From assembly GCA_050290185.1 (NCBI GenBank), contig JBNKHE010000008.1, forward strand, positions 32,001 to 96,000: 64,000 nucleotides of DNA, given 5' to 3'. Position 1 is the first letter of the stretch. Every line of letters starts with the position of its first letter. Source of the DNA: Pontiella sp. GTDB taxonomy: Bacteria > Verrucomicrobiota > Kiritimatiellia > Kiritimatiellales > Pontiellaceae. Of the stretch, positions 23,032 to 39,588 are shown piece after piece. The notes beneath the pieces were generated by a model that was not told the DNA's origin, made no database searches, and was given only the letters and a program-made list of their open reading frames with translations. A program made the translations under genes and the position numbers.

Positions 23032-24204
23032 ATGAAATGGGAGCGGACAGATCTGGGGCGGTTACCGGTAAAATCGTGGTGCGACCGGGTGGAACAAGGC
23101 GCATTGGATCAGGCGGCCAACCTAGCGAACCATCCTCGCGTGGTTGGTCACGTGGCGTTGATGCCGGACTGCCATGTGGGATACGGCATGCCGATCGGCG
23201 GGGTGGTTGCATGCGATAACGCCATTATTCCAAACGCGGTCGGTGTGGATATCGGTTGCGGCATGTGCGCGGTTCAGACCAGCGTCGAGGTTGACGCGAT
23301 TTCCCGCAGTCAGATTCGAAAATGCATGGATGCAGTCCAGGAACGCATTCCGCTGGGCGAGGGCCATTGCCATCGCAGACCGCAGCAATGGGATCGGTTT
23401 AACGAATTACCGTCGTGGCTGGATGAACATGCCCGCGAACTGGCGTTCAGGAATCTCGGATCGCTTGGCGGCGGAAACCATTTTGTTGAATTGCAGGCCG
23501 GCGATGATGGAATGGTTTGGTTGATGCTCCACTCCGGCTCGCGGAACCTCGGCTACCGGATTGCCGAGCGTCATCATGGTATTGCATTGAAGCGCCATTC
23601 CGAGCTGGGCGACCTCGCGTATCTCGAGGTGGGCAGTAGTGAAGGGCAGGCCTATCTCCATGACATGAATGTTGCCTTGGCCTACGCGCAGGAAAACCGT
23701 GCACGCATGATGCAAGTGTTCAGGGAAGCACTATTCGTCACGTTTGGCGATGTACGGTTCACTAAGGAGATCAATATCCACCACAACTATGCCGCCAAGG
23801 AAGCGCATTTCGGGAGAACCGTGTGGGTGCATCGCAAGGGGGCGACATCGGCCAAGGAGGGGGAAGAGGGGATTATTCCCGGCAGCATGGGAACGCATTC
23901 GTACATCGTGCGAGGTTGCGGGAATCCGGAATCGTTTCAGTCCTGCGCACATGGCGCCGGCAGGAAGTTGGGGCGCATGGCGGCTTCGCGCACGTTGTTG
24001 CGGGAGGATTGCGACAAGGCGATGACGGGCATCGTTTTTTCCGGCTGGCATGCGTTTCGGGGCGGTGGACGGAAGATGAAGGGATTGCTTGATCTCAGTG
24101 AAGCACCGCAGGCCTACAAGGATATTGATGAGGTTGTTGGGGCTTCTTCGGATCTGGCTGTGCCGCTGGTTCGATTGCGTCCTTTAGGTGTGGTGAAGGG
24201 GTAA
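23032..24204 (+). CDS. rtcB: RtcB family RNA ligase
   Basis: MPDCH.GYG.PIGG, GVDIGCG, GGGNHF.E, HSGSR, HNYA, HRKGAT, PGSMG, HGAGR, AYKDI. Confidence 0.95.
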   Translation: MKWERTDLGRLPVKSWCDRVEQGALDQAANLANHPRVVGHVALMPDCHVGYGMPIGGVVACDNAIIPNAVGVDIGCGMCAVQTSVEVDAISRSQIRKCMDAVQERIPLGEGHCHRRPQQWDRFNELPSWLDEHARELAFRNLGSLGGGNHFVELQAGDDGMVWLMLHSGSRNLGYRIAERHHGIALKRHSELGDLAYLEVGSSEGQAYLHDMNVALAYAQENRARMMQVFREALFVTFGDVRFTKEINIHHNYAAKEAHFGRTVWVHRKGATSAKEGEEGIIPGSMGTHSYIVRGCGNPESFQSCAHGAGRKLGRMAASRTLLREDCDKAMTGIVFSGWHAFRGGGRKMKGLLDLSEAPQAYKDIDEVVGASSDLAVPLVRLRPLGVVKG

Positions 24205-24279
24205 TTGATTCCATGTTTTTCGTGTAATTTTTCTTTCCTCCCGTTTAGACTCCGCTTTTTGATTCAACGGAACGATGGC

Positions 24280-24900
24280 ATGATTGGAATTATTGACTAT
24301 GGAATGGGGAATCTTGGAAGCGTTTCCAACGCCTTCCGGTTTCTTGGACTTGATGCAAAGATTGTTTCACGAAAAAGTGAAATGGAGGATTGTCGTGCGG
24401 TACTGCTTCCGGGCGTCGGCGCATTTGGCGATTGCATGAGTCATCTGGTCGAGCACGATTTTGTCGAGGCGATCGGCACCTGGGTTCAGGCGGGCAAGCC
24501 TATGATGGGTATTTGTCTTGGACTGCAGGTCCTGTTCGACTCCAGCGAAGAGACGCCCGGCGTTCCGGGGCTTGGAATCTTTCCGGGAAGCGTGAAGCGC
24601 TTTGATCTTCCTAGGGAACTTAAGGTGCCCCAGATCGGCTGGAACCGGATCAATGAGGTTCAACCCGGGTGTCCTATGTTCGATGGAATCGACGATGGCT
24701 CGTTCTTCTATCTGGTGCACTCCTATTATGTTAGTCCTGAAAACGAGGCGGTCATTGCCGGCAGGACGGAATACGGGATCGATTACTGTTCGTGTGTCTG
24801 GAAGGACAATGTGTTTGCCACCCAGTTCCACCCGGAGAAGTCACAGGAAGCGGGGCTTCGCATGCTGCGGAATTTCCAGACCTGGGCCGCGGCGATGTAG
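24280..24900 (+). CDS. hisH: Imidazole glycerol phosphate synthase glutaminase subunit
   Basis: IDYGMGNL.SV, PGVGAF, GICLG, P.IGWN, HSYY, QFHPEKS. Confidence 0.96.
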   Translation: MIGIIDYGMGNLGSVSNAFRFLGLDAKIVSRKSEMEDCRAVLLPGVGAFGDCMSHLVEHDFVEAIGTWVQAGKPMMGICLGLQVLFDSSEETPGVPGLGIFPGSVKRFDLPRELKVPQIGWNRINEVQPGCPMFDGIDDGSFFYLVHSYYVSPENEAVIAGRTEYGIDYCSCVWKDNVFATQFHPEKSQEAGLRMLRNFQTWAAAM

Positions 24901-24985
24901 GGTCGGCCAGCTGAGAAAGGCCTTGTTTTGGATATGTCCCGATCAGAAATGATGATAGGTTTTTCCCGTTTTCGGAATAGGATTT

Positions 24986-26434
24986 ATGAGTCTGAAAAAT
25001 AGAATATTGCTGATTATATTTGTCGCTTCGATCGCATCATCGGTCGTTACTGGTTGCTTTTTAGTCTACCTGCTCAAGCTTTCCGGGCAAATGGCGATCA
25101 GCTCCGAAGGGCACTCCATCGCGCTTGTTTTTGCGATTGCCGTTTATCTGCTTAGTGGTCTTTTCATTCTGATCCTGCTGAATGTGTTGCTCAGTAAAAA
25201 TGTAGTTATTCCTGCGGTGGAGCGTAAGCTCATAGACAATGAAAGGGAGATGCTGACCCGGCAGCTACACCATTCTCAGAAGATGGAAGCGGTCGGGAAG
25301 CTGGCGGGCAGTATTGCGCACGATTTTAACAACCTGCTTACGATTATCGATGGCTACTCAAGTATGATCATTGCCAGTCCTGACTCGCCTGATGTCCAGC
25401 AGAATGCCGAGGAAGTCGTTGAGGCGGCCCGAAAAGCTTCATTTATTACGCGCAAACTGCTCAGCTTTAGTCAAAAGGAAAAAGCCGAGCCGGTGTTGCT
25501 CGATCTTAATACAACGCTACAGGATACGCATAAGATGTTAACCCGGCTGATCGGGGAAAAAATCGCGTTGGTCACCAAGGCCTATGATGAACCGGTCTAT
25601 GCGAAGGCGGATCCGGTTCAGATCGGACAGGTGCTGATGAATCTTGCGGTGAATGCGCGGGACGCTATGCCGAATGGGGGACGTATCACCATCAAGATCG
25701 ATTGCCTGGAGGTCGGTGACGGGGAGTGCGGTAAGCCTTCCAGTCTGTCGGCTGGTCGCTATGCGGAGATATCTGTACACGATACAGGGGTCGGCATGGA
25801 TGAAGAACTTCTGGATCGGGTTTTTGAAGCATTCTTTACCACCAAGCAGGAAGGCAAAGGGTCGGGGCTGGGATTGTCGATTGTCAAAGGCATCATGAAG
25901 GGCAATAAAGGATTTGTTGATGTTCACAGCAAGCTAGGAAATGGAACCACGTTCCTGCTCTATCTGCCGGTTGTAGAACTTGAGGTTGCCGCGGATATGC
26001 TTGAAGAGGAAGCGGCGGCAGCCGTGGTGGATAAAGCGACTGTCGATGCGGATACTCCGGTTGAGCAAGAGACAAAAACCATTCTCCTGGCGGAGGATGA
26101 TCCCATGATTCGGAATCTCGTACAGCAAACGCTGGAGGCAAAGGGGTATACGGTGTTGATTGCCGAAGATGGCTGGGAGGGAATCAAGATTGCACGTAAC
26201 CACAAGGGGCGGATCGACCTGCTCTTTACCGATGTTGTCATGCCGGGAATGGGCGGTGCCGAGCTTGCCGTGGCGATGAATGAACTTTATATCGGCATCA
26301 AGGTGTTGTTCATGTCTGGCTATTCGCGCTCGCAACTCATTGATGAGGGCGTTGCTGAAGATGCGGCATTGATCGAGAAGCCCTTCTCGCCAGATAAAGT
26401 GGTGAGCATGGTCCGAAAACTACTGGCCAGCTAA
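24986..26434 (+). CDS. Hybrid sensor histidine kinase/receiver (CckA-like)
   Basis: 2 TM, SQKMEAVGKLAGSIAHDFNNLL, NARDAM, GSGLGLS, C-terminal REC (EDD, TDVVMP, KPF). Confidence 0.92.
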   Translation: MSLKNRILLIIFVASIASSVVTGCFLVYLLKLSGQMAISSEGHSIALVFAIAVYLLSGLFILILLNVLLSKNVVIPAVERKLIDNEREMLTRQLHHSQKMEAVGKLAGSIAHDFNNLLTIIDGYSSMIIASPDSPDVQQNAEEVVEAARKASFITRKLLSFSQKEKAEPVLLDLNTTLQDTHKMLTRLIGEKIALVTKAYDEPVYAKADPVQIGQVLMNLAVNARDAMPNGGRITIKIDCLEVGDGECGKPSSLSAGRYAEISVHDTGVGMDEELLDRVFEAFFTTKQEGKGSGLGLSIVKGIMKGNKGFVDVHSKLGNGTTFLLYLPVVELEVAADMLEEEAAAAVVDKATVDADTPVEQETKTILLAEDDPMIRNLVQQTLEAKGYTVLIAEDGWEGIKIARNHKGRIDLLFTDVVMPGMGGAELAVAMNELYIGIKVLFMSGYSRSQLIDEGVAEDAALIEKPFSPDKVVSMVRKLLAS

Positions 26435-26941
26435 TGTTGGGATGGTTCTGTCGGCCTGTTTACCGGATGCCGGTACGACCATAACGTTGCATGGGGCATG
26501 GCGCATAACTGATTCGGATACGCTTCCGAGCAGGGCTTTATGAAGCATACCGTGTCCATGGGAGCCGAGGATTATGATATCGGCTTTCAGGTCGGTGGCC
26601 TTTTTGATAATAAGTTTGGCTGCATTTCCCTTTAGCAGGATGGCCCGCGCATCGATCCCTTCATTACGCAGGCCGGAAGAAATCGACAAGAGCTCGTCGT
26701 GTTCGCGTTTGAGCTCCTCTGCGCTAAGATCGCGGGCGACTTGAACATCTCCAGGTGTACTGATGAAGTCGGGCGAATAGTCTGCATATTGCGTAGTTTC
26801 GTAGATGACGGCATTAGTCTCGTCGGAGGCAATATGCACGATCCAAAGCTTCGCATTGAGAGTTTTTGCCAGCGAGGATGCCTGTTGCAATACGACGCCA
26901 GTGGTTTTGGAGAAGTCGATAGCGACTAAAAGCGTTTTCAT
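26420..26941 (-). CDS. Universal stress protein
   Basis: LVAIDFS, DIIILGSHG...LLGSVSESVMRHAPCNVMVVP. Confidence 0.92.
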   Translation of the reverse strand: MKTLLVAIDFSKTTGVVLQQASSLAKTLNAKLWIVHIASDETNAVIYETTQYADYSPDFISTPGDVQVARDLSAEELKREHDELLSISSGLRNEGIDARAILLKGNAAKLIIKKATDLKADIIILGSHGHGMLHKALLGSVSESVMRHAPCNVMVVPASGKQADRTIPTLAGQ

Positions 26942-27064
26942 TCTACCTCCTTTTCTCTTCCGGTATTCTAATACCTTATCCCTACATGGCAAGCTGGGCT
27001 TTTCCTGTTTCGGAAAGGATCGGAGGTTTAAAAATTGTTTTGAGAGAAGGGGATGCTATTTTTG

Positions 27065-29047
27065 CTAGGAATCAAGAGCGGGAAGCGTAATGAAGACCGT
27101 GGTGCCGCCTTCACTTGTTTCAATGTCCAGTTGGCCGTTATGGTCAATTACAGCCCGTTTGGCGATCGGCAGGCCGAGTCCAAGACCCCGGGCTTTGATG
27201 GTGCTGAACGGCGAGAAGACTTTGTCGCGCAACGAGGGGGAAACGCCGCTTCCGTTGTCGGTGATCATGATATATACGGCACTGCCATTTTGCGAGGAAC
27301 GCCCCTTGACGGTTACATTGATCCGTGAGCCGGGTTTGTTTGAAAGGTTCTCCGCTGCATTTCTCAAGAGATGATAAATGCATTCCTCCAGCGAAGCCGC
27401 GTCACCGTTGACCTGCCGTCCCGTATCATCTGATGAAAGGTGAATCTTGAGGTTTTCGTGATCAAACTCGGATTGAATGCGTGTGACGGCAAATTCGATG
27501 GGTTTATGGACATCCAACGGTTGGAAGATCGGTTTTGGTGGATTGGCAAATTCATTGATCTTTTCGATGATGTGATTAAGTTTATCCACTTCGGCTGTAA
27601 CCTGTTCGCTAAAGTCTGCCCGGAAATCAGGATCTTCATACCGGTCGGGCAGAAGTTGCGAAAAGGTCTTGATGGCAACCAGTGGATTGCGGATTTCGTG
27701 ACTCATGCTTGAGGCCAACTCGTTCCAGAATGCTGCTCGTTCAAGTTGCTCTGCTTTTTCCTGAAGGAGTTTGGCGCCGGTTACATCGTGAAGCATCATC
27801 ATGGCCCCGACGCAGGTGCCGTTATCCATCAACCTGCGGGTTTCCGCTGAAAGGGTCCGTTTCGTCCGCACATCGGTCCACTCGTTGGCGTCGCGAATTT
27901 CCCGGTCCTCGATTGTTCTGCGCAACATATCTGCTATGCGGCTTCCAACTTCTTCTGCCTTGCCGCCGATCACGTCCTCGGTTTCAGGGCTCAGGATGGT
28001 TCGTGCAGTGCTATTGAACCAGCGTATTATGGCATTTTCATCGCAGGCAATAATGCCAAAAGGAATGGAATGGAGAAGGGTTTCCGCCAGGGCTTTCTGC
28101 AGGGCGGTTTCTTCGTACTTGAGTGCTTTTTCGAGGGTGGTGGAGATATGGTCGGCCAGCGCCGTCATGTCTTCGAGATCGGCCACGTCGAAAGGGATTC
28201 CGGTAGAGCGCTGGCCAACAAAAATCCACCCCTTAATGGTGCCCGTTGCGTATAGGGGAATAATGATCTCGGCACCTAGCGAGTCGAGCATCCGTTTGAG
28301 CATGGAGCGCTCTTCGGGATCCAAAATGTTTTTCAGCGTGGATCGAGAAACTAGATGGGTATTCATCTCCATCCAGCGGATAAAGGGATCGTTTGAATGA
28401 ATCCGCAGTTTTTCCGTTGCAGCAAGGCAGCGGGTGCCTGCCTGGTATATGTAGCATTCATCGGCTTCCGTGCATATGAATATGCCGGCGCGGGAGACGC
28501 GTGCTGTGGCTACAAGTCCATCGACCACACTGTCAAACAGCATCTCCAGATTGTCGACGTTGCGCTGCGCCTTTAAGAAGTTTTGGAGGGGGGCCGCAAA
28601 CAGGGTGCGGGATTCCTGTTTGGGTTCAGAGAGTCGAGCGTTCAGCGTTGCCAGTTCTTGCGCCAGCACACTGTTTTTATTGCGTAGGGCAAGGCATTCG
28701 ACCGCTTGTTTTAGCACAACGCGAAACTCACGGCTTCCTGGCTCCAGTGAGAGTGTGCAGAATGGATCCATCATTTCAGCCGCAAGCATGGGATCCGACC
28801 GGTCGACGCCCATGGGTATAATGATGGTTAGCGGCCTTTCATGTTTAAGTCCTGATATGACATCAAGACAATGGGGCGCGCGTAGGTCTGCCAAAAGAAC
28901 CGTGTCGCCAAATTGCATGAACCGTTGCTCAAGTTCTTCTTGAGTGGATATGGGCTCTATGAAGGCTACATTTGATCCAAGACGGGGGAGCTTGTTTACA
29001 AGTTCGGTATCCCTGCTATATAGAATGCATGAAGGCAGTGAGGTCAT
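27065..29047 (-). CDS. Cytoplasmic histidine kinase (degenerate REC-GAF-PAS-HisKA-HATPase)
   Basis: SHEIRNPL H-box, NA.E N-box, DNGSG, GLGLGL; GAF (IIPLYATGTIKGWIFVG); N-terminal LLADLRAP receiver-like segment. Confidence 0.88.
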   Translation of the reverse strand: MTSLPSCILYSRDTELVNKLPRLGSNVAFIEPISTQEELEQRFMQFGDTVLLADLRAPHCLDVISGLKHERPLTIIIPMGVDRSDPMLAAEMMDPFCTLSLEPGSREFRVVLKQAVECLALRNKNSVLAQELATLNARLSEPKQESRTLFAAPLQNFLKAQRNVDNLEMLFDSVVDGLVATARVSRAGIFICTEADECYIYQAGTRCLAATEKLRIHSNDPFIRWMEMNTHLVSRSTLKNILDPEERSMLKRMLDSLGAEIIIPLYATGTIKGWIFVGQRSTGIPFDVADLEDMTALADHISTTLEKALKYEETALQKALAETLLHSIPFGIIACDENAIIRWFNSTARTILSPETEDVIGGKAEEVGSRIADMLRRTIEDREIRDANEWTDVRTKRTLSAETRRLMDNGTCVGAMMMLHDVTGAKLLQEKAEQLERAAFWNELASSMSHEIRNPLVAIKTFSQLLPDRYEDPDFRADFSEQVTAEVDKLNHIIEKINEFANPPKPIFQPLDVHKPIEFAVTRIQSEFDHENLKIHLSSDDTGRQVNGDAASLEECIYHLLRNAAENLSNKPGSRINVTVKGRSSQNGSAVYIMITDNGSGVSPSLRDKVFSPFSTIKARGLGLGLPIAKRAVIDHNGQLDIETSEGGTTVFITLPALDS

Positions 29048-31557
29048 GAGGCCTCCTGCTGGATAACCGGAAGGTATACATAGAAGGTAGAGCCGGCTCC
29101 CGTTTCACTCTCCACTTCGATAACGCCTCCATGATCCTGAATGATACCATGCGCGACCGATAGACCCATGCCGGTTCCTTCGCTCTTGCTGGTGAAGAAC
29201 GGATCAAAAATCTTTTGGAGGCTTTCTCGTGGGATTCCGTGTCCGGTATCGCTGATTTGGACACGAATGCACGCTAGATTGACCCCATGGTTTGGATGCT
29301 CTCCAGTGGCAAACTGATATTTACAGTTAGAGGATCCCACTGTAATCGTGCCATCATTGCCGATGGCTTCTATGGCGTTTAGCATGAGGTTGATCAGGGC
29401 CTGGGACAAAAGCTTCGCGTCGCCTTGGATTTCGTCTACATCCGCATGGCATCTGTTGTTCATGCCGATGTTCTTTTGAATCATTTGCTCATGGGTGAGT
29501 TTGAGAATCTGGTCAATCGTATCGTGGAGTTTCATCGGCACAAGATGAGGTTTTGTAGGTTTGGAGAAGCTGAGCAACTCATTAACGATCCCGTCAATCC
29601 GTGACACTTCGTGCGCCACCAACTCAGAAAACTCCAGCCTGAAGTCCTCATCCGAATATCGGCTCGGCAACAACTGTGTAAAGGTTTTAATGGTCACCAG
29701 TGGATTCTTGATTTCGTGGGCCATGCCGGCGGCAAGCGTACCTACGCTGGAAAGCTGATCCGTACGCCGAACCTGCTCCTCCAGGCTTTTAAGTTCAGTC
29801 AGGTCTGTAAACACCAAGAGAGCCCCCATAGGCTTCTGATCATGACTCAGAAGAAAGGTTGTGCCCATTCTAATGCTCAGGCTTTTTTTCGCTTCATCCA
29901 GTTCGAACAGTCTGGCATCGACATTTCGCTGACCTTTCTCGCGTTTGAGCGCGTCTTCCAGCGAACGGGCAATCGCTTTTGGCAGCACATCGATATCCAT
30001 ACCGATGGCATCCTTATCCTGAATGCCGGTAATACGTTGTGCTTCATGATTGAACAAAGTTATTTTCCGCTCTGTATTAGCTAGAATCACACCGCTTACT
30101 AGTTGATCGAGCATGATCTCATTGCGTATCTTGCTGTCTTGGACTTCGGTATAAAGCTGGGCGTTTTCCAGTGCCACGGAGAATTGATTGCACAATAGCT
30201 GGAGGGCATCTTGCTCGGCGCTGTCATAGATACGACCATCAGTCTTTGGGCCGAGAAGCACTACGCCCGTTAATCCTTCTTTTGCGAATATCCCCGTGGC
30301 AACCTGAACATCATATTTGGTTAATGTATCTATGGCTTCCTGTATCTTAGCTGTAGGGCGTGTTCTTAGGAGACTATCTTTTGATATTGGTTCTTTTGAC
30401 TTCTTAATCATTTCTATAACCGCATTACTGGGCTCGAATGTAATGGTATTTTCACATTGCTCGGTGCAGTAACGCAAAGAATACCCGAGGTCTGAATACG
30501 CAAGCATTCCTATGCGTTCCGTCCCGAGTGCTGTGACAAGCAGTCTTAGAAAATGATCCAGAATTGCATCAATGGTGGTGACAGATTGAAACATTTTGCT
30601 TGCCGCTCTCATGGTTGACGATACATCCATGGACTTTGAGGCAATCAGTTTTTCGGCTACTTTCTGCAGTCGCCCATGCGCGGGTGTCATTGAAAATGCA
30701 ACCACTAGCGTTGCAATGATTTGAGCTGGGAGGTGCGAGTAAATCATGAATTGGCTGAGCAATAAGGACCCTAGGCTCCATGTAATTAAATAAACAATCA
30801 CAAGGTATACAATAAGTAGTGCGTAGGCAATTGCCCTACGAATAATGGTTAGGATGCCCAGTATTTTATGGATGGCTATCCCATACCCGACGGTTGCGAC
30901 AAGCGCTACAATGCTTAGCGCATTGGTAAATGGAACGTACTGTGATGTTCCGGCAATTAGGGGGATGAAAAGTCCGAGGACTGATCCTATCAAGAGCGCT
31001 ATTGTTGCGCCCAATACTACAAATGAAAGCTCTGCTCGCTGGACCCCGTCCAAGGTCTTCATGTCGCGTTTGAAGGCGACAATGAGACTTATGCCGGACA
31101 GCAAAAAATAAAAGGCATATATGGAAAGTCCCGCTCCATATTTGGGCTCTGCTAATGCCATGTCGGATGAGACGTTATCAGGCATAACCGTTGTTTTTAA
31201 GAAAAACTCTGTAAAACACAATGCGGTTGTGAGTATGTTTATAATTAAATATCGGATTCCTATCCTGAGAATGGACGTAAAAGAGCACTGGGGACATTTA
31301 ATGGAAAGCCGCAGGAGGTGACAGGAGGTCGGTATAATTGCTGCGAAGACGGAAGCCCATCGTATTGCCAGTGTTGCGGCTTCGGCGGTAGCCGCCTGGA
31401 TTATGAACCATCCGGATAGTTGCCACAACGTCACGCATCCGGCAAAGACTAAGAAATACTGGTTGACTACTCGGCGCGTATTGGTGAAATAGACGACTAT
31501 GCCGAGTATACTGGCGAACAAAAGCGTTCCAAGTATGGCGATCTCAACAATCAACAT
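29044..31557 (-). CDS. Membrane sensor histidine kinase (7TM-type input, GAF, PAS, HisKA, HATPase)
   Basis: ~9 hydrophobic helices in the first ~290 aa; [40 protein letters not shown]. Confidence 0.9.
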
Positions 31558-32798
31558 GTGTAATCAACTTTACTTATGATGAGTGAGCTATTTATGGCTC
31601 CGCTTCCATGGGAGTTTATTAGAAGCTTGCCTATTTCCGTATGCCTCGGCTCCTGCGATACGAAATCCAGATTGCAATCTGGATCAAGATTAACGAGGTT
31701 TGCCGTTGGCGGTACTACTTGATTGGCAATCGCCAGAGAACTTGCGATTACTTGATGGGCGCCTGCCGCCCCCAAGGGATTTCCGGTTGCTCCTTTGATT
31801 GAGGTTACGGGAACTGAATAAGCATGTTTTCCCAAAAGCTGCTCAATCAGTTTCGATTCTGCGGCATCAAGTATTTGGTCGCTGGGCCCGTGGGCAAAAA
31901 CAACATCAATTTCACGAGGTAACAACCCGGAATTGGCTAGTGCCTTATTCATGCTCGAGAGTAAGCCATTGCCGGCGCCGTCATAGTTAAGATCTCGGGA
32001 TGTTCCATGTCCAAGAATTTCAGCATACAAAGGAGCATTTCTGCTTTGGGCATGTTGCATGGATTCGAGGATGACAATCCCGCTGCCCTCGGCAAGTACT
32101 CCTCCGTCTCTGTTAATGTCAAAAGGGCGGCTTGCATGCATAGGGTCGTCGTTGTTCACGCTGACCATTCCGGCCGCGCAAAAACCGGCCATGGCTGACG
32201 GGACAATGGGAGCCTCGGTACCTCCGCAGATGCAAATGTCGGCTTTGCCTTCTTTAATTAACTTAGCTCCTGCGGCGATCGCATCAAGTCCGCTGACACA
32301 GGTATTGGAAATCGTGCTGATTTCCGTTTCTACTTCAAGCATGGCGCCTAGTAAACTGGACGCGGCTAAGTGAATGCATCCTTCTACCGCATATGGGACA
32401 AGTTTATTGGGGCCCATTTTGGCTACCCGGAGAATTTGGTTCTCAATGTGGTCAAACCCACCTAGGCTAATGCCTAGGATGATTGGTATAGGGGCCGCGC
32501 TTAGAAGGTCGGTATGCGCAATTCCCGCATCTACATTCGCATCGGCGGCAGCCCTCAAGCCCAATTGCACATTTCGACTCAGGCGCCTAGATTTTATGCG
32601 CCCATCCATATAGTCCTCGGGCACAAATCCAGTAACTTCTCCTGCAATTTTTGATTTAAAATCTGTTGCATCAAAAAGGGTAATCGGCCCGATGCCAGAT
32701 TCTCCTGCAAGAAGGGAGTTCCAGAAGGCGTCTTTGCCGATGCCGTTGGCGGCTAGTACGCCGATGCCGGTAATCACAACCCTGTTTCTTCCGATCAC
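31551..32798 (-). CDS. Atypical FabF-fold beta-ketoacyl synthase (Cys-His-Asn)
   Basis: RVVITGIG, SGIGPITLFD, NTCVSG, SRPFD.NRDG..LAEG; variant motifs AHGPSD, SIKGATGNPLGAAG, NSHGSG; GTG start. Confidence 0.88.
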   Translation of the reverse strand: MIGRNRVVITGIGVLAANGIGKDAFWNSLLAGESGIGPITLFDATDFKSKIAGEVTGFVPEDYMDGRIKSRRLSRNVQLGLRAAADANVDAGIAHTDLLSAAPIPIILGISLGGFDHIENQILRVAKMGPNKLVPYAVEGCIHLAASSLLGAMLEVETEISTISNTCVSGLDAIAAGAKLIKEGKADICICGGTEAPIVPSAMAGFCAAGMVSVNNDDPMHASRPFDINRDGGVLAEGSGIVILESMQHAQSRNAPLYAEILGHGTSRDLNYDGAGNGLLSSMNKALANSGLLPREIDVVFAHGPSDQILDAAESKLIEQLLGKHAYSVPVTSIKGATGNPLGAAGAHQVIASSLAIANQVVPPTANLVNLDPDCNLDFVSQEPRHTEIGKLLINSHGSGAINSSLIISKVDYTC

Positions 32799-32894
32799 GC
32801 GCTTTGCCCCCTGTGCCCTTATTCGATGCTGACTCGATGGAAAATGATGCCGCATAAGCGCTTCCGTCCGAGAGTCCTGTGCTATTTTGTCTCA

Positions 32895-32923
32895 ATTAAA
32901 TATCAATATATTGTATAGATCAA
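32895..32923 (-). promoter_or_regulatory. Putative sigma-70 promoter for the KS-HK-HK operon
   Basis: Minus strand TTGATC-N17-TTTAAT. Confidence 0.45.
32901..32913 (+). promoter_or_regulatory. IHF-like binding site
   Basis: TATCAATATATTG matches WATCAANNNNTTR. Confidence 0.55.
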
Positions 32924-32963
32924 GAATTATCACACAACCTGTGGACAAAAACTGAGTGACAAA

Positions 32964-32979
32964 TGGCATAACTGTTGCT
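32964..32979 (+). promoter_or_regulatory. Sigma-54 promoter for fadL operon
   Basis: TGGCATAACTGTTGCT, near-consensus TGGCAC-N5-TTGCW, ~48 nt before the ATG. Confidence 0.7.
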
Positions 32980-33027
32980 ATCAACTATCAGGTTAGATTT
33001 GACCAATTCAACTTAAGGGGCAGTATT

Positions 33028-34257
33028 ATGAATAAACAAAGTTTTTACATCGTTTCCAGATCGGCAATATTTGGTGCGGCAGCGGCAGCGGCAGCGGCAA
33101 TGGCAAGCACTGTAATGGCTGATGGCTACCGGAACCCGCCACCGACCGCTGAAGGCATAGGTAAATCCGGTGTGAATAGCGTATTTGTGGATGATGCGTC
33201 GGCGATTTCGTACAATCCCGCCAACCTCGCACTGCAAGGCAACAACTCATTGGTTGTTGCGGCAACCTGGGCCAAGACGGAGAATTCTTATTCCAATCCC
33301 TTGAATCCGGCGGGACGTGTGGATTCGAATGACGAATGGGTTTTATTGCCCAATCTCTATATTTCCATGCCTTCAAGTTTTGACGGTGTGGTTTTGGGGC
33401 TTGGCATAACAACGCCTTATGGTCAGGGAATCGATTGGACTCCCACGGATCAATACAATCCGTTCGCGCCTATATCGATCTACCAGGCTGAAATCAGTCT
33501 GATAAATATTAATCCAACGGTTGCGTTTAAGATGGGTGATAAAGTGTCTGTTGGGGTTGGCGCGGATATCTATTATTCCGAACTGGTGTTCAATGCTTTG
33601 ACTGGCCTCGGCATAGGCGCTCCTCCGAATGGGAAGGCGAATGCAGAAGGCGATGACTTTGGGTATGGGGGAAATCTTGGCGTTACGTGGCAAATCGATG
33701 AACACCATCGGGCTATATTCACATACCGTAGCGAAGTGAAACTGGACTATGAAGGCGATTTGACGGCAACACCGGGCTCTTCGCTGACCAGCAGTAGCTT
33801 TGGTCTGGGCGTTACTTATCCCAACACGTTGGCTGCAGGATATGGTATTGAGCTGACGGAAGACATCCGCATTGAAGCCAATATCGAATGGCTTGAATGG
33901 TCTTCGACCAAGGTGCAGGTTGCCGATCTCGGAGCAAACGGAGCCCTGCCGCTGCCGCAAAACTGGGACGACACCTTTACCTTTGGGATTGGTGGTGATT
34001 GGAAGCTCGATGAAAATTGGGTGATCCGAGCAGGCTATGCCTTTATTGAGTCACCGATTCCGGACTCTACTATTTCACCGTTGCTCCCTGATTCCGACCG
34101 TCATGCTTTGAGTTTGGGGGCGGGCTATACTTCGGGGGGCCATACCGTGGATGTCGCCTATACGTTCAGTATTTACGATGATCGGGGCATGACGGCTTCA
34201 GGCACATATGACATTGATTCCGACTTGGTGGGTGTGACATATTCCTACTCGTTTTAA
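33028..34257 (+). CDS. FadL/OmpP1/TodX family outer-membrane channel
   Basis: Signal peptide, DDASAISYNPA hatch motif, TPYG, ININP..AFK, W.D, R.GYAF..SPIP, PDSDR, C-terminal YSF. Confidence 0.9.
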   Translation: MNKQSFYIVSRSAIFGAAAAAAAAMASTVMADGYRNPPPTAEGIGKSGVNSVFVDDASAISYNPANLALQGNNSLVVAATWAKTENSYSNPLNPAGRVDSNDEWVLLPNLYISMPSSFDGVVLGLGITTPYGQGIDWTPTDQYNPFAPISIYQAEISLININPTVAFKMGDKVSVGVGADIYYSELVFNALTGLGIGAPPNGKANAEGDDFGYGGNLGVTWQIDEHHRAIFTYRSEVKLDYEGDLTATPGSSLTSSSFGLGVTYPNTLAAGYGIELTEDIRIEANIEWLEWSSTKVQVADLGANGALPLPQNWDDTFTFGIGGDWKLDENWVIRAGYAFIESPIPDSTISPLLPDSDRHALSLGAGYTSGGHTVDVAYTFSIYDDRGMTASGTYDIDSDLVGVTYSYSF

Positions 34258-34272
34258 CCGGAGGTAGGAACC

Positions 34273-35460
34273 GTGGAATCGAAACAGTTGCAAGGCACGA
34301 TTTTAGTAATCGATGACGAGCGGGGACCGCGTGAAAGCCTGCGCATGGTACTCAAGTACGATTATGAAATGTTCCTCGCCGACCGCGTTGATGGCGGAGT
34401 GGAGCTGTTGCGCGAGCATCAACCGGACCTTGTGATTATGGATATCCGCATGCCGGAGAAAAGCGGTATTGAGGGGTTGCAGGAGATCCGCGAGATCGAC
34501 CCGAACGTTTCCATTGTCATGCTTACCGGCTACGGGGATCTGGAAACCGCCCAGCAGGCCATCCGCTACGGGGCCAACGACTATCTCCAAAAACCTTTTG
34601 ATGCCAATGAGATTCAGGAAGTCGTAAAGAAGTATGTCGATCGGAGCAAGCTCTACTCGCGCAAACGGCAGGCACAGGAAGAGCTTCAGAAGATGACCCA
34701 GTCGTTGGGTCGGGAAGTCGGGAAAACCAATAAGCTAACATCGTTGGGCGCAGCCTCGTCCGAGTTGGTTCATGATCTGCGTAATCCGCTCACCATCATT
34801 CGCGGCTATCTTGATCTGCTCAACTACGAGCTGAAGGAAAAACAGGAATCAACATCCGATGAAATGAACGAATATCTGGATCAGATCGAACGCAACGTCG
34901 AACGTTGCGCTGAGCTGGTCGAGTCATGGCGTTCGCTGGGCCGGTTTGATTTTTCCCAGTTGCAACGGCTCAATCTTCCAAAGCTGCTGAACGACTGTTT
35001 CCGCGATGCTGCGGCGCATTCCGATATCTCCTTTTCGCTGCAGGTGGAAGGAGGGGAAGAGCAGTATGAGATGCTGGGAGAGCGGTTGCAGATGCAGCGG
35101 GCTTTCCAGAATCTGATCGACAATGCCGTTGAAGCGGTTGCCCAGGTCTCTTCTCCGGGAATCACGATCTTGTTCTCCATGAATCATGCGGATATAACGG
35201 TCAAGGTAAAGGACAACGGATGCGGCGTTGATGCAAAAAATCTGAGATGGATTTTTGAACCGTTCGATAATATGGCCACAATTGAAAAGGGCGCCGGCCT
35301 CGGATTATTTATCACCAAAAAGGTGCTCGAAGAGCATCGTGGCACCTTGCAGTTTGAAAGCAAGGTGGGGGAAGGTTCCGTCGTTACGGTTCACGTTCCG
35401 CAGGCCCACACGGCCCTTGGATATTTTTCCAGTCCCGAATCTATGATCCAAGCCCGATGA
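34273..35460 (+). CDS. Receiver-histidine kinase hybrid (REC-HisKA-HATPase)
   Basis: VIDDE, MDIRMP, TGYG, KPFD; VHDLRNPL; NAVEA, DNGCG, GAGLGL. Confidence 0.9.
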   Translation: MESKQLQGTILVIDDERGPRESLRMVLKYDYEMFLADRVDGGVELLREHQPDLVIMDIRMPEKSGIEGLQEIREIDPNVSIVMLTGYGDLETAQQAIRYGANDYLQKPFDANEIQEVVKKYVDRSKLYSRKRQAQEELQKMTQSLGREVGKTNKLTSLGAASSELVHDLRNPLTIIRGYLDLLNYELKEKQESTSDEMNEYLDQIERNVERCAELVESWRSLGRFDFSQLQRLNLPKLLNDCFRDAAAHSDISFSLQVEGGEEQYEMLGERLQMQRAFQNLIDNAVEAVAQVSSPGITILFSMNHADITVKVKDNGCGVDAKNLRWIFEPFDNMATIEKGAGLGLFITKKVLEEHRGTLQFESKVGEGSVVTVHVPQAHTALGYFSSPESMIQAR

Positions 35461-35467
35461 ACTCCCG

Positions 35468-37084
35468 ATGAGTATTTCCGATTCTGTCTCTGCCGCAATC
35501 GCATCCTGGAAACAGGATCTTGGCGAGTCGGCCGTGATGACTGAATCCGGTCCGCTGGATGACTATACAAGCAGTGTTTGCGCATCATCACGTGAAGTCG
35601 TCGCTGTTCTTAAGCCCACTTCAATGGAGCAGGTTCAATGCATCGTTGCAAAGGCCAATGAACACAAGGTTCCGCTCTACCCCATCAGCTGCGGCAAGCA
35701 GTGGGGAATGGGGTCAAAATTGCCCGTGGAAGATGGCGCCGCCATTGTCGACCTTTCGGGAATGAACCGGATCATCGAAGTCAATCCCCGGTTCCATTAC
35801 GCAGTCGTCGAACCGGGTGTGACGCAACGGCAACTGCTCGACTATATCAAAGAGCACCATTTTCCGCTTATGCTCAATGTAACGGGCTCCACATCCGATA
35901 CCAGCCTGATCGGGAATGCGATGGATCGTGGTGTGGGCTACTTTGATTCCCGGGCACACGGAATTTCCGATATGCAGGTTGTTTTGGGAAATGGGAAAAC
36001 CATCCAAACCGGATTCAGCCACTACGGGAATGCCAAAACAAAAAACCTGTACGCTCACGGTGTGGGACCTTCGCTTGATGGACTGTTTCCTCAGGGAAAC
36101 TTTGGCATTGTAACCTCCGCGTGTATCGACCTTATGCCCAAACCCGATGAGCATATGTCGGTTATTTTAAAGATCGATGCAGAGGAGAAGCTTCCGGCGC
36201 TCATCAATACGCTGGTGTCGTTGCGATCGAGAGGTGTATTCGCAACGATAGCGCACATGGGAAATCGTGAGCGCTCGTACATCACATTGGCGCCGTTGCT
36301 TTATGAGCAACTGGTAAAATCCGGCGAACCAGAAGGAGAAGCCACTCGAACTAAGGCCGTGACCATGCTGGAAGACGGCGGCTTCGGACCATGGAGTGCG
36401 GCCATCGGCATCCTCGGAACCAAGGACCAGCTCAAGCTGGCAAAAAAAGAAATTCGCAAGGCGGTCAAAGGCTTTGCCTCGACGATGTTCCTGAATGACA
36501 ATCTGATTGCCTGGGCAAAGGCCTTTGCCCAAAAGCTGACCTTCATTCCGGCGGTCAAGAACCAGCTCATGATGCTCAAGGCCATAGAACCCGTCTATGG
36601 ATTTACGGCGGGCGAAGCCACCAATCAATCGCTAAAGGCTGTGTATTGGTCAGCCGGCGACTATGAACACCTAGACGCTTCCGATCCCGACCAGTCTGAT
36701 AGCGGCCTGTTATTCTGCCTACCCATCATTCCTGCCGACGGTCAAGCTGTGAACGAAGTCGTCCGCGATACCCGCGATACTTTTTCCCGCCACGGTTTCG
36801 AGGCCGCGATTACTGTAAATCTAATGAGTACCAAGGCGATGGAAGGCGTTGTCAGTCTGGCATTCGATCGCCGCGATCCGGAGCAAACCCAACGGGCGCA
36901 TACCTGCATTCAGGAGATGGAAGCGCGCTACATGACGCAGGGTTATCCTCCATACCGGGTTGGAATCAATTCCATGCACCATGTGGTTCGGGAAGACGAT
37001 TCGTTCTGGCAAACCATCCGGGAACTCAAGACCGTGCTCGATCCGAATAATATCATTGCGCCCGGCCGTTACAACTTGGTGTAG
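35468..37084 (+). CDS. FAD-linked oxidase, vanillyl-alcohol oxidase/p-cresol methylhydroxylase family
   Basis: YPIS.G..WG.GS, DLS.MNRI, VEPGVT, GPSLDGLF.QGNFGIVT, GYPPYR, LDPNNIIAPGRY. Confidence 0.9.
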   Translation: MSISDSVSAAIASWKQDLGESAVMTESGPLDDYTSSVCASSREVVAVLKPTSMEQVQCIVAKANEHKVPLYPISCGKQWGMGSKLPVEDGAAIVDLSGMNRIIEVNPRFHYAVVEPGVTQRQLLDYIKEHHFPLMLNVTGSTSDTSLIGNAMDRGVGYFDSRAHGISDMQVVLGNGKTIQTGFSHYGNAKTKNLYAHGVGPSLDGLFPQGNFGIVTSACIDLMPKPDEHMSVILKIDAEEKLPALINTLVSLRSRGVFATIAHMGNRERSYITLAPLLYEQLVKSGEPEGEATRTKAVTMLEDGGFGPWSAAIGILGTKDQLKLAKKEIRKAVKGFASTMFLNDNLIAWAKAFAQKLTFIPAVKNQLMMLKAIEPVYGFTAGEATNQSLKAVYWSAGDYEHLDASDPDQSDSGLLFCLPIIPADGQAVNEVVRDTRDTFSRHGFEAAITVNLMSTKAMEGVVSLAFDRRDPEQTQRAHTCIQEMEARYMTQGYPPYRVGINSMHHVVREDDSFWQTIRELKTVLDPNNIIAPGRYNLV

Positions 37085-37256
37085 GTTACAACGGGCCAAA
37101 GTGTGCAAAGAGCAGATCGTTTGCGCCCTGTTGTTGTGGACGGCTTGTAAGAGCGTTCTTCCGGAAGATTTATTCTTTGGTCTGGAGGGATATGGAGCGA
37201 GCACCTTTTTTCCCTCGGGCGAAATCAGCAGCTTCCAGCCGATTAACGGCAAGCCG

Positions 37257-37754
37257 CTATGAGTAAGTGAATTCCTTTATCACATGCCGGTTAACCCTGT
37301 TGGTCGCGTGCTGCACCTCAAGGATTTTAGCATCGATCGCTACCAGTTTACTTTCGGATAGTTGTGTGGTTTCTGTGGTGTCGAGTATGTGTCGGTCGAT
37401 TTTTTCTATCATGTCGATACAAGCGCATAGCGCTTGTTTGAAGTTTGACCCCAGTGATAGGTCTTCGTGAGGTACATGCAGTTCGGCGGCAACTATGCAT
37501 AGGGTGCGAAAGGCGCTTAGCATCAATTCCTTCGAACTCTCCCAGGCTTCTTCAGTATCAATCATCTTCCAATAGATATGTGTTGGCGTGGGTGCCATCC
37601 GTTTCTTTTTGTAGTGCAGAACCTCCATCAAGCACACCCTGATGGCGCATAAATGGGCATCCAGCAGATCCCCGTCAATACCCGGTTCCATAGGCGATTC
37701 GCTTGCGGCGTGGTCAGCTTGATCAACCTTGTTTCTCTTGAAAAATGTGAACAT
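37257..37754 (-). CDS. Hypothetical helical protein
   Basis: 165-aa ORF with RBS GGGAGA and AT-rich upstream region; no family recognised. Confidence 0.55.
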   Translation of the reverse strand: MFTFFKRNKVDQADHAASESPMEPGIDGDLLDAHLCAIRVCLMEVLHYKKKRMAPTPTHIYWKMIDTEEAWESSKELMLSAFRTLCIVAAELHVPHEDLSLGSNFKQALCACIDMIEKIDRHILDTTETTQLSESKLVAIDAKILEVQHATNRVNRHVIKEFTYS

Positions 37755-38378
37755 GCTTTCTCCCGTATGCTATGCGGTTGCTACCGATTAAAATACGTAT
37801 ACATAGTCCGCATTAAAAAACATAAATATTTAGTGGAAACAAGTAAAAACAGTATGGCAAATGTGGGTATTTTCGGGCTGTTGCTGAATCGTTGAATCTT
37901 TGTCGGAATGGATCTGACGGTTAACGCATGAATCCAAACAGGCGTCCTCGATCTTCCAGAAGAGTTGTGTTTGGCCGGTTCTGGGTTGAACGTGCCATTT
38001 CCAGTGTTTGCAGGCAGATTGCCTGTTCATCAATCAACAGGACTTAACGTATCGTAGTGGTTGTGCCCTGCCGGGAAAAGAACGGCGCTATGATTCCTGT
38101 TGCGCTGCCACATCAGAGGCACAGGTTGCAACAAGGTATGGAGACGGTTGATAGAAATGCGGATGCGACCGGCCATGGGATTGACCGACAGATATGCGTT
38201 GAGTTCCTCCTCGACCCAATCCTTGTGAGGGCGAACCATATGGAAAAGATCACTCCCATAAGTTTGCGGCATTTCATTCGCAAGGTTCGCTAGATGTTCT
38301 TCAATGGACAGATGCAGGACTAAGAGCGTTCAGCGGGAGTTGCCTGTACTGAACAGAGCGCTTTGTCACGGAGCTATG

Positions 38379-39479
38379 TTACGCAGAAACCGGTCGTTCG
38401 GCCACCCACTGGCGCATGGCATCCTTGGTTTTCTTCCAAGCCGCCGAATCATTGCGCTCTTTCACGAATTCGCGGAAGAGGTGGAAAAACATCTGTCGGA
38501 AGGTCTCGAGCAGGACCATGCGTTCCTGGAACTTGCCAACGCGGTCGAAGGTTTCGGTTTGCGGGAGCTTCAGGCTGCGGAAGACAAATTCGTCGGCGTC
38601 GAACGTAAAGGCCCAGGCCTCCTCGCCGCGCACGAACTGGAGTTTGGCCTTCTTGAGTTTCTTGCCGCTGAGCAGGGCGGTGCGGGCTTCGGCGCTGAGC
38701 ATCGGCTCGCCCTTGCGCAGGGTGATTTCATGCGCTCCCTTTCCTTCCATCACGAATGTCAGTGGGCCCTCTACCATGAAGGCGATTTCCCCGACATCGG
38801 GAATTTGGGACAGTCCGCCGCGTTTTTCGGAACAGTACCACAGCCACATCAGAAATTCGCGCCCGGCGGTGCCGTCGACCATGCCGTCTTCGAGTTCGCC
38901 GGAAAAGCTGGCCGGGCCCCAGTTTTGCACATCGATACTTTCTGTTTTTGCGGCCATCGTTTCCGGATCGGCCACTTGTGCGGAACAGCCGGTTGTTTGC
39001 ATTAGGGTAAGCGCGAAAGCATCGAGTTGCTTTTCGGACGTGGCCGAGGCGTAAATCATATGCGAGCGTTCATCGAACACAAAATCGATGCCCTTGAGCT
39101 GCGGCGGCATATCGGGTAGCAGGCGTTCCTTGACCTGTTTCTTGATTTCGGAGCGCGCCTGCTGGTTGAGGTATTGCTTGTCGTCCGCTTCCATGACCGC
39201 CATTTCTTCGACCGCGCATTCGGCAGCCAGCAGGGAGGACGGCACTGTTTTTTTTGCTTGTGTCAGGGTCAGACGGAGGTAGCCGCCCAGAAAGGCGCTT
39301 TCCTCGGTAATGTTGCGGTCGAGCAGGTGGCGTCCGGCCACCCAGCCGTGGACTTCCTCTTCAACCAGAGTGTTCAATGGCGGCAGCGCCGCGGCGGAAA
39401 ACTTTTCGACATCTTCCGCTCCCAAATCCCGCGATGCGAAAAACATACGGAAGCTCAACGATCCCTTTTCAAATCCCAT
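38379..39479 (-). CDS. rdgC: RdgC-like recombination-associated protein
   Basis: MGFEKGSLSFRMF, GW...L, K.VPSSLL, EIKKQVKERLL, GREFL.WLW, EARTAL..GKK, F.F.SLKLP. Confidence 0.7.
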   Translation of the reverse strand: MGFEKGSLSFRMFFASRDLGAEDVEKFSAAALPPLNTLVEEEVHGWVAGRHLLDRNITEESAFLGGYLRLTLTQAKKTVPSSLLAAECAVEEMAVMEADDKQYLNQQARSEIKKQVKERLLPDMPPQLKGIDFVFDERSHMIYASATSEKQLDAFALTLMQTTGCSAQVADPETMAAKTESIDVQNWGPASFSGELEDGMVDGTAGREFLMWLWYCSEKRGGLSQIPDVGEIAFMVEGPLTFVMEGKGAHEITLRKGEPMLSAEARTALLSGKKLKKAKLQFVRGEEAWAFTFDADEFVFRSLKLPQTETFDRVGKFQERMVLLETFRQMFFHLFREFVKERNDSAAWKKTKDAMRQWVAERPVSA

Positions 39480-39515
39480 CTCAAAACCTCTTCTATCAAA
39501 TTTATTTGGCCCTGG

Positions 39516-39580
39516 CAGCGACGCTGAGGGCGCAGAGTTTATAACGTGCACTTCTCCGCGATCTCTGCATCTCTGCGAGG
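39516..39580. repeat. Intergenic CGCAGAG/CTCTGCG palindromic repeat
   Basis: GCAGCGACGCTGAGGGCGCAGAG...CTCCGCGATCTCTGCATCTCTGCG. Confidence 0.5.
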
Positions 39581-39588
39581 AATGTCTT

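Follow-up and report, generated by a model that had tools for sequence, protein, structure and literature searches.

A conserved ketosynthase and membrane receptor kinase module with a hypervariable cassette in Pontiella sp. and its relatives: a candidate acyl-signal system

Organization of the locus

A 64,000-nt stretch of the genome of Pontiella sp. (assembly GCA_050290185.1, contig JBNKHE010000008.1, positions 32,001 to 96,000 of the forward strand; hereafter the window, with positions counted from its first letter) contains six genes in two divergent operons that may form a lipid-signalling system (Table 1). The leftward operon encodes a ketosynthase-like protein (KS), a membrane receptor kinase and a cytoplasmic kinase of 660 amino acids (HK660). 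The rightward operon encodes a FadL-family outer-membrane channel, a receiver-kinase and a flavoprotein of the VAO/PCMH family, referred to as the oxidase. The genome is 95.5% complete and its nearest named relatives are Pontiella. A preliminary description of the DNA, made from the letters alone, had reported an overlap of 7 nt between the genes of KS and the membrane kinase, a 4-nt ATGA overlap between the two kinase genes and gaps of 15 and 7 nt in the other operon; the coordinates of the open reading frames (ORFs) agree with this layout. Contigs from other sequencing runs of the study that is the possible source carry the region without differences, for example over 31630-34635 (X4 record 22) and 33165-38000 (X3 record 16), and none of them covers the whole region.

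Searches of the six ORFs against Pfam and NCBIfam returned ketoacyl-synt, two PAS-HisKA-HATPase proteins, Toluene_X/FadL, REC-HisKA-HATPase, and FAD_binding_4 with FAD-oxidase_C. Two gene starts were revised. The KS frame reaches ATG 32855 (434 amino acids), and its start was moved to GTG 32798, probably the true one because aligned orthologues start there. The FadL frame opens at GTG 32956 (433 amino acids); ATG 33028 is probably the start because GTG 32956 sits upstream of the promoter. The locus is free of fab genes, as had been noted before: the canonical FabF and all three matches to the acyl carrier protein (ACP) family are located on contig C1. There, fabF is accompanied by ACP and fabD/fabH-like genes, and its product is 35% identical to the locus KS.

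Table 1 Features of the locus, with positions in the window
Feature	Position	Strand	Remarks
HK660, cytoplasmic kinase, 660 aa	27065..29047	-	core; receiver-like domain (Asp54), GAF, PAS, HisKA, HATPase
Membrane receptor kinase, 837 aa	29044..31557	-	core; seven-transmembrane (7TM) bundle + 2 helices + GAF, then PAS-HisKA-HATPase
Subregions of the receptor kinase			7TM bundle aa 1-234; hypervariable aa 1-450; remainder conserved
Hypervariable cassette (approximate)	30200..32680	-	KS from about residue 60 through receptor to about residue 450
KS, FabF-fold ketosynthase-like	31551..32798	-	core; candidate signal synthase
Decayed upstream activator site	32878..32893	+	window without match to TGTACA-N4-TGTACA
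IHF-type site, WATCAA-N4-TTR	32901..32913	+	in 12/77 loci, 1.2 expected, window included
Sigma-54 (-24/-12) promoter of fadL operon, TGGCA-N6-TTGCT	32964..32979	+	conserved in relatives
FadL-family outer-membrane channel	33028..34257	+	accessory, variable
Receiver-kinase, 395 aa	34273..35460	+	REC-HisKA-HATPase without DNA-binding domain; most conserved core part
VAO/PCMH-family flavoprotein (oxidase), 538 aa	35468..37084	+	modifier slot

Conservation of the module

A receptor-profile search of the GTDB collection returned 242 loci, of which the best 80, from Kiritimatiellia, Chthoniobacterales and Lentisphaeria, were analysed. In a second sample of 401 genomes of the phylum, 66 had a receptor match, and 40 loci including 20 of the weakest were fetched. 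The locus counts in this study include close kin and do not represent independent events. KS was encoded directly upstream of the receptor in 74 of the best 80 loci; five others are cut by contig ends (within 340 bases) and one, locus L110, is a solo receptor without KS. The further sample showed the same order in 39 of 40 loci, the last being cut by a contig end. All 41 KS-clade matches of at least 500 bits in the 401 phylum genomes belonged to genomes that have the receptor, adjoining on the same contig. The module is usually present in a single copy per genome.

Among 40 relatives, two KS clades were distinguished, the locus type with 42-53% identity and the housekeeping FabF with 33-37%. 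A canonical FabF was found in each of 19 genomes checked, KS being a second copy beside it. All 20 fetched loci of relatives, from three families, contained KS, the receptor and a divergent FadL gene, and also HK660 and the receiver-kinase wherever the contig extends. FadL was absent from Chthoniobacterales and family-f39 loci, and the oxidase was present in 34 of 107 loci. Judged from gene content, the conserved core is KS, the receptor, HK660 and the receiver-kinase, and FadL and the oxidase are lineage-specific extras. The preliminary description had treated all six genes as one neighbourhood; the check across genomes upheld this for KS, the receptor and the kinases, not for FadL and the oxidase as core parts. 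Database names place KS in the cultured Pontiella desulfatans, P. agarivorans and Kiritimatiella glycovorans.

In genome G086, KS is a 100-aa remnant, while the receptor, both kinases, an activator (see below) and the oxidase are intact. An apparent lack of KS in three genus members (G012, G013 and G023) was rejected, as their contigs end inside KS or at the promoter. Likewise rejected was a pairing of distant receptor relatives with another synthase family: 20 weaker matches gave 19 loci with KS and one that was cut. KS is split by a frameshift in G280 (L196:8821-9985), the receptor is split in L077 (8001-9362), and in L155 the 1.5 kb upstream of the receptor contain no KS; these are real breaks or assembly errors. 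In family-f39 loci (e.g. L190:7981-9759) the HK660 counterpart is strongly diverged and has no Pfam match, and the receiver-kinase is often encoded upstream of KS in the same operon. Searching plasmids with the sensor region returned nothing.

A hypervariable cassette of ketosynthase and sensor

Within the genus (11 genomes), mean identity was 52% for KS and 39% for the sensor region, against 82% for the housekeeping FabF, 84% for the receiver-kinase and 71-74% for the kinase cores. FabF distance within the genus was unrelated to KS distance (rho -0.01) and was likewise not followed by the sensor; it was followed by the kinase cores (0.40-0.64). Sliding windows placed the switch in identity near KS residue 60 and near receptor residue 450, the latter inside the kinase gene. 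Between L032 and L033, receptor identity is 21-52% before residue ~450 and 77-96% after it; the cores are 84-88% identical, KS 44% and the sensor 35%. L033 and L036 share 82% identity in KS and 77% in the sensor. The sensor part in the window has a G+C content of 0.44-0.47 versus 0.54 for the genome.

Over 341 close-core pairs of 61 loci, KS identity correlated with that of the 7TM bundle (rho 0.84) and of the GAF domain (0.78). FadL, proposed earlier to carry the signal across the outer membrane, does not co-vary with KS (rho 0.08). In 23 Kiritimatiellales loci, imposing the 7TM topology on the KS alignment cost 287 log-likelihood units and imposing the core topology 1441; for the 7TM alignment, the KS topology cost 288 and the core topology 805. 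The GAF tree has about as many splits in common with the cores as with KS. Sequence comparison shows KS and the membrane sensor domain to be a single unit of inheritance and exchange, set against kinase cores that are conserved. Their co-variation as a cassette agrees with the functional link between KS and sensor that had been suggested before.

Several draft genomes break at or inside the cassette. Two 2.6-kb contigs, L203 and L204, are 99.9% identical, were binned in two genomes and hold KS together with receptor residues 1-476, i.e. the extent of the cassette. The coexistence of two alleles in one genome (G141, G263) was considered and is not supported; the extra 2.6-kb contigs match each other (99.9%) and are unlike either host locus.

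The ketosynthase-like enzyme

The KS model has the FabF fold (pLDDT 96), with a TM-score of 0.95 to KAS II-type structures at 33-39% identity; all listed structural matches are KAS II-type. The active site of the window KS consists of Cys186, His322, Asn359 and His416 (counted from ATG 32855), which gives a Cys-His-Asn triad. A residue survey covered 84 loci and 120 database proteins (204 rows; the sets overlap). The catalytic Cys was kept in 84/84 loci and 120/120 database proteins, and the two FabF histidines occurred together in 0/84 and 0/120, respectively. Cys-His-Asn was the commonest triad, other variants being Cys-Tyr-Asn, Cys-His-Ser and Cys-Asn-His; family f39 has mostly Trp at the first His position. 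Asp191 and His/Arg416 are near-invariant new residues. In E. coli FabF numbering, the replacements are His340 to Asn, His168 to Asp and Phe398 to His/Arg. The loop with His/Arg416 corresponds to the one that holds the acid/base Cys in thiolases. Arg91 and Arg94 are conserved in a basic patch near residues 91-94, as in FabF, at the position where FabF binds ACP. KS scores 372.5 bits against a TIGR03150 cut-off of 493.75, and its gene lies outside the fab cluster.

As a whole, the KS family, in which no member keeps both histidines, cannot run ordinary FabF chemistry. Cys-His-Asn is also the triad of PpyS (PMC4578411), and KS could therefore still catalyse a condensation. The common denominator of the family would be an acyl-enzyme on Cys. 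In the preliminary description KS was compared with the Photorhabdus ketosynthases PpyS and DarB. KS shares the Cys-His-Asn triad but, as a FabF-fold enzyme, is not a relative of either.

The membrane receptor and its partner kinases

In the model of receptor residues 1-460, a bundle of seven helices is accompanied by two more membrane helices and a GAF domain. The former designation as 7TM kinase was right as to a membrane kinase, and the helix count is corrected to 7 + 2, followed by GAF and PAS. Residues 1-234 matched seven-helix domains of G-protein-coupled receptors (GPCRs) with Z-scores of 14-18 and a root-mean-square deviation of 3-4 over ~215 residues; helical bundles commonly reach Z <~13, and likeness in fold shows no function. 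HisKA_7TM (PF16927) matched 34 of 85 receptor orthologues at E <=0.1 (best 3.9e-14), the window protein giving no match, and PF16927 is found in 22% of the members of the top Atlas look-alike cluster. At E <=1e-30, 490 representatives of 7TM sensor kinases with GPCR-like fold were retrieved. Weak in-register matches to the membrane part of a LuxN model (positions 91-293) came from 3 of 85 sensor regions (E 0.0099-0.46) and none from the window sensor.

The outer halves of the receptor helices are less conserved than the inner halves (0.31 vs 0.42), and conserved residues cluster at the cytoplasmic ends; outer and inner sides were assigned from the model and the basic loops. Complex prediction of KS with receptor residues 1-460 gave no answer (score 0.00).

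The phosphorylatable histidine is invariant in the receptor (His614, 85/85) and in HK660 (His450, 75/75), and is replaced by Arg in 11 of 72 receiver-kinases. All three kinases keep the N and G boxes; in HK660, Asp54 and the N-box are invariant in 75/75 orthologues. HK660, previously described as a soluble kinase, is indeed a kinase, to which an N-terminal receiver-like domain followed by GAF and PAS has to be added. The suggested link to PrsK was not borne out: TIGR02916 matches kinase cores only (HK660 92 bits, receiver-kinase 88 bits; cut-off 300) and is not among the best 25 matches of the membrane kinase. The genome has five PEP-CTERM matches, all on contigs other than that of the locus.

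Promoter of the fadL operon and the output regulator

A strict sigma-54 pattern directed toward fadL or the receiver-kinase gene was found in 17 of 77 loci (0.4 expected). A looser pattern, which has no shuffle control, occurred in 50 of 77 with near-constant spacing within lineages. The genome contains rpoN. The palindrome TGTACA-N4-TGTACA was present in 17 of 77 loci (0.06 expected). Among the genus loci, 7 of the 8 with the Fis-type helix-turn-helix (HTH) of the regulator have an intact palindrome, against 0 of the 10 without HTH, which include the window.

This regulator is a REC-AAA-Fis activator. Its members form one clade (support 99/99) and follow HK660 in 15 of the best 80 loci. In Kiritimatiellales the activator is decayed: family f3 has REC-HTH without AAA, some genus members have a bare HTH, and the window has none. 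In family f3 the sigma-54 site is absent in 7/7 loci. A search of 21 genomes of the order (this genome and 20 relatives) found no representative of the activator clade; the best matches reach 43-46% identity versus 57-81% within the clade. The previously postulated sigma-54 output is supported by the promoter with its IHF-type site. The activator had been placed elsewhere in the genome; other lineages encode it at the locus, and the search of this genome did not find it.

Elsewhere in this genome, contig C8 encodes a soluble PAS kinase and a REC-sigma-54 activator (G000:C8:186250-188809; L121:6251-8810), and this activator has a best match of 43-46% in each of the 21 genomes of the order that were checked. 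It is a candidate driver of the fadL promoter in this genome. In Chthoniobacterales loci (L066-L120), a conserved TTATTCACA motif lies ~95 bases upstream of the sigma-54 site, with the exact pattern in 33 of 77 loci (2 expected); the motif resembles a DnaA box.

The modifier slot

In 107 loci, the position of the oxidase is a modifier slot that holds VAO (34 loci), a LanB-N-like protein (25), a nucleotidyltransferase (15), a B12-radical-SAM family protein (8) or a UbiE-type methyltransferase (6), never together. These modifiers are lineage-bound, which suggests a handful of replacement events. The nucleotidyltransferase has a Pfam Adenyl_transf match. A further methyltransferase in nine loci is closest to SibL (E 1e-68), an enzyme that methylates a derivative of an aromatic amino acid. 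Sequence searches of the PDB found no relatives of either the LanB-like protein or the nucleotidyltransferase.

The closest match of the oxidase, and a homologue, is the flavoprotein of p-cresol methylhydroxylase (1wve/1dii, E 2.5e-62). A plasmid search with it returned only distant VAO-family matches. Tyr496 and Arg497 are kept in 24/24 orthologues, and the N-terminal Tyr of the phenol pocket is Met or Leu in 24/24 (Met in the window); Tyr-Tyr-Arg forms the phenolate pocket in VAO/PCMH flavoproteins. The enzyme types in the slot together with the oxidase family hint that the ligand carries a hydroxyl of phenolic or enolic type. Within the genus, the modifier shows no co-variation with the KS allele (rho -0.29). 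The oxidase stays conserved whichever KS allele is present, and family f3 has no modifier. Maturation or destruction of the signal had both been suggested for the oxidase. Since it is conserved across KS alleles and kept in G086, where KS is a remnant, turnover of an incoming signal fits better than maturation. The VAO-family enzymes FeeG and CndG decarboxylate N-acyl tyrosines (PMC11350588, PMC11959600), and a planctomycete makes ring-methylated N-acyl tyrosines (PMC7293339).

Many genus members have a PlsY-like gene and a fusion of FeeM/GNAT with a pyridoxal phosphate (PLP) enzyme after the oxidase (L023:15000-17240), which may make an acylated amine or lipid; neither was found in this genome. 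In L024:7632-9104 and L030:7612-9081, two loci with differing KS alleles and similar FadL (74%), a B12-dependent radical SAM gene lies between the promoter and KS. In Chthoniobacterales, the receiver-kinase is followed by an 808-aa protein (L101:2755-5181) that matches only the lantibiotic-dehydratase N-terminal domain; no precursor peptide was seen.

Neighbouring genes

A universal stress protein gene (26420-26941) follows HK660 on the same strand, here as in many genus members, and may be co-transcribed. A hybrid kinase (HisKA-HATPase-REC, 24986-26434) converges on the operon, and its orthologues occupy the corresponding position in L024 and L025 (67-78%); this kinase could be a further relay member. 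Downstream of the oxidase, a 165-aa ORF (37257-37754) without Pfam match has homologues near the oxidase in L026 and L030. The segment 38379-44376 contains an RdgC-like gene, a TonB-dependent receptor and a class-III aminotransferase; two further genes there appear to resemble a sodium/solute symporter and ectoine synthase. The second FadL paralogue of the genome (L124:4581-7554, G000:C2) lies behind a 571-aa gene that seems to encode an acyl-CoA ligase; this is probably an ordinary fatty-acid uptake route. An Rfam scan over 24000-40000 of the window gave no match, and a scan for sigma-70 promoters and terminators gave results at chance level.

Interpretation of the module

The reading we favour, with a probability of roughly 0.62, is that the module would produce and sense a self-made acyl small-molecule signal that comes in strain-specific types, each with a matching receptor. 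KS would draw on the acyl-ACP of primary fatty-acid synthesis, load the acyl group onto Cys186 and join it to an acceptor in a reaction other than normal FabF elongation, the product differing by allele. This product would exit the cell and bind to the matching receptor allele in the outer half of its 7TM bundle, and FadL may ease the crossing of the outer membrane by the product. From the receptor, phosphate would be relayed by way of the receiver domains of HK660 and the receiver-kinase. Where a lineage has the full set, the relay would reach the locus-encoded sigma-54 activator, which would drive the fadL operon in a feedback; in this genome, the cognate activator would have been lost from the relay. 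The fadL operon may serve uptake and turnover of the signal. The oxidase would modify a hydroxyl- or phenol-bearing signal, as would its replacements elsewhere (methyltransferases, nucleotidyltransferase and LanB-like proteins), switching off being likelier than maturing. Given such a signal, an acylated tyrosine-like phenol is a tentative proposal for its chemistry, and a head-to-head condensation product, e.g. a pyrone or resorcinol, is an equally tentative one.

A number of results weigh against this reading. KS identity also correlates with the receptor's own core (rho 0.57, same pairs), and the locus pairs entering the correlations are not independent. The KS and 7TM trees each reject the other's topology, so that their histories are close, not identical. 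KS and sensor nearest neighbours agree in only 28 of 61 loci, and L038 and L049 (L070 partly) join one KS type to the sensor type of another group; a KS remnant was sought in L038 and not found. Adjoining genes for KS and sensor would travel together by linkage alone. Linkage alone is, in turn, insufficient to account for the cassette, because the block is far more divergent than its flanks and ends inside a gene. The GAF domain, which is cytoplasmic, also varies with the cassette, and such variation would not be needed for a ligand that acts purely from outside. The histidine positions of KS drift widely (His/Tyr/Trp/Asn; Asn/Ser/His/Thr), as might those of a binding protein. The oxidase lacks one of the three phenol-binding residues, and 17 of 107 loci show none of the tested modifiers (7 of the 17 are cut at a contig end). 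Finally, this genome has no cognate activator match and a decayed binding site.

Some of these points would suit KS as an intracellular co-sensor. It would bind a ligand or be acylated by it, the ligand being either the acyl-ACP pool or a lipophilic or phenolic compound from outside that inhibits fatty-acid synthesis. KS would contact the cytoplasmic face or the GAF domain of the receptor and induce an uptake and detoxification operon. The lack of any orthologue with both catalytic histidines, the variation at these positions, the co-variation of GAF with KS (rho 0.78) and the translational coupling of KS and receptor would be expected of such a partner. So would the nucleotidyltransferases (Adenyl_transf match) and methyltransferases among the modifiers, since enzymes of these kinds also serve antibiotic inactivation. 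The co-variation of KS and receptor would then reflect a protein-protein interface. However, the membrane part of the receptor varies most on its outward face and is conserved at its cytoplasmic ends, a GPCR-like bundle is suited to binding a ligand directly, the GAF tree shares splits with the cores about as often as with KS, and the receptor, relay and oxidase stayed intact in G086 despite the collapsed KS. We consider the co-sensor reading improbable.

An antagonistic compound made by KS against competitors or non-kin, with the receptor sensing the cell's own compound and the modifier giving inducible immunity, would lead to the same cassette variation and would explain the small-molecule-inactivating enzyme types in the slot. 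The planctomycete N-acyl tyrosines alter the biofilms of competitors (PMC7293339). Yet the modifier, absent from family f3, does not follow the KS allele (within the genus, rho -0.29), a relay of three kinases seems elaborate for immunity, and no exporter is linked, which makes antagonism distinctly unlikely.

Lipid remodelling, in which KS would be a variant elongase or initiator with the Cys-His-Asn triad of FabH, making special membrane fatty acids, with FadL for uptake and kinases that sense a membrane property, is the least credible. Although Cys-His-Asn can support condensation, as in PpyS (PMC4578411), and several genus members encode the PlsY-like protein and the FeeM/GNAT-PLP fusion after the oxidase, that pair was not found in this genome, the first His position is occupied by Tyr, Trp or Asn in many KS orthologues, neither an ACP nor a reductase or ligase is linked, and allele swapping and a KS far more divergent than FabF are left unexplained.

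Comparison with known systems

The self-made signal with matched receptor types has its closest parallel in the agr system of Staphylococcus (agrBDCA), where the synthase side and the N-terminal sensor diverge together and the kinase domain is conserved. The specificity groups of Bacillus comQXP show the same pattern of synthase and sensor divergence. The sensor domain of agr is as divergent as agrB and agrD (PMC5007282). In contrast to the FabF-fold enzyme and sigma-54 output found here, both systems use peptide signals and LytTR/NarL regulators in Gram-positive hosts. There is no room for a peptide precursor at the locus, as KS overlaps the receptor start, and no AgrB/ComQ family match was found among the locus proteins.

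Ralstonia phcBSRQ shares with the present reading a fatty-acid-derived signal, a synthase gene beside a sensor kinase and PhcR, a soluble receiver and kinase protein without DNA-binding domain (PMC8578825) that the receiver-kinase resembles. The Phc system differs in its methyltransferase PhcB, where the upstream gene here is KS, and in its output through the LysR regulator PhcA. The Vibrio pair LuxM/LuxN (AinS/AinR) has a nine-helix membrane kinase and a relay to a sigma-54 activator. LuxN has nine predicted helices and binds its acyl signal between helices 4 and 7 (PMC5007282). Unlike LuxN/AinR, the module has no N-acylhomoserine lactone synthase, its kinase contains PAS and lacks a C-terminal receiver, and homology is not established.

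In PpyS/PluR and DarABC/PauR of Photorhabdus, too, the signal is made by a stand-alone ketosynthase from acyl groups of primary metabolism. These enzymes yield a pyrone or a cyclohexanedione, and PpyS has a Glu base (E105) that acts across the subunit interface. PpyS, modelled on OleA, has the triad Cys-His-Asn, and its product is sensed by a LuxR-type receptor (PMC4578411). The module differs by its FabF fold, its membrane kinase partner and the lack of a linked LuxR solo. KS has the fold and length of FabF/KAS II, along with the catalytic Cys and a basic patch at residues 91-94 or nearby. The fee, chondrochloren and hyellamide pathways (FeeM-FeeG, CndG, HyeB) and the stieleriacines are likened to the module by a VAO/PCMH flavoprotein; theirs acts on an acylated tyrosine, with the acyl group supplied by primary ACP. 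They differ in that acyl transfer is by FeeM-type synthases instead of a KS and that no matched receptor is described. The system works like agr/ComQXP in its cassette, and like Phc and LuxM/LuxN, and is a member of none of them.

Significance

The module is real, conserved and apparently undescribed. The earlier statement that no described system has this combination is in line with the literature, mostly non-subscription, in which no description was found; nor did it describe any native system of signal synthase and receptor in these bacteria of soil, freshwater and marine sediment. A term search in a synteny preprint on Kiritimatiellia (10.64898/2026.10.06.756941) found no mention of FadL, FabF or histidine kinases; its supplements could list the cluster. 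The accessible part of PMC8895600 contains nothing on the sensor domain.

If the self-made acyl signal is confirmed, these abundant bacteria would have such a signalling system, and its synthase would represent a new family, a rebuilt FabF. It would also supply a ligand class for the large unstudied group of 7TM sensor kinases with GPCR-like fold. A lineage-wide signalling language of Verrucomicrobiota, Kiritimatiellota and Lentisphaerota, with a FabF-derived synthase, strain-specific phenolic lipids such as acylated tyrosine derivatives, a GPCR-like 7TM kinase perhaps distantly related to LuxN and several unrelated hydroxyl-modifying off-switches, is a bolder and rather doubtful extension. 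Dozens of natural synthase-receptor allele pairs would, in that case, constitute a ready library of orthogonal signals, and the step-wise loss of the output regulator offers a natural experiment in relay rewiring.

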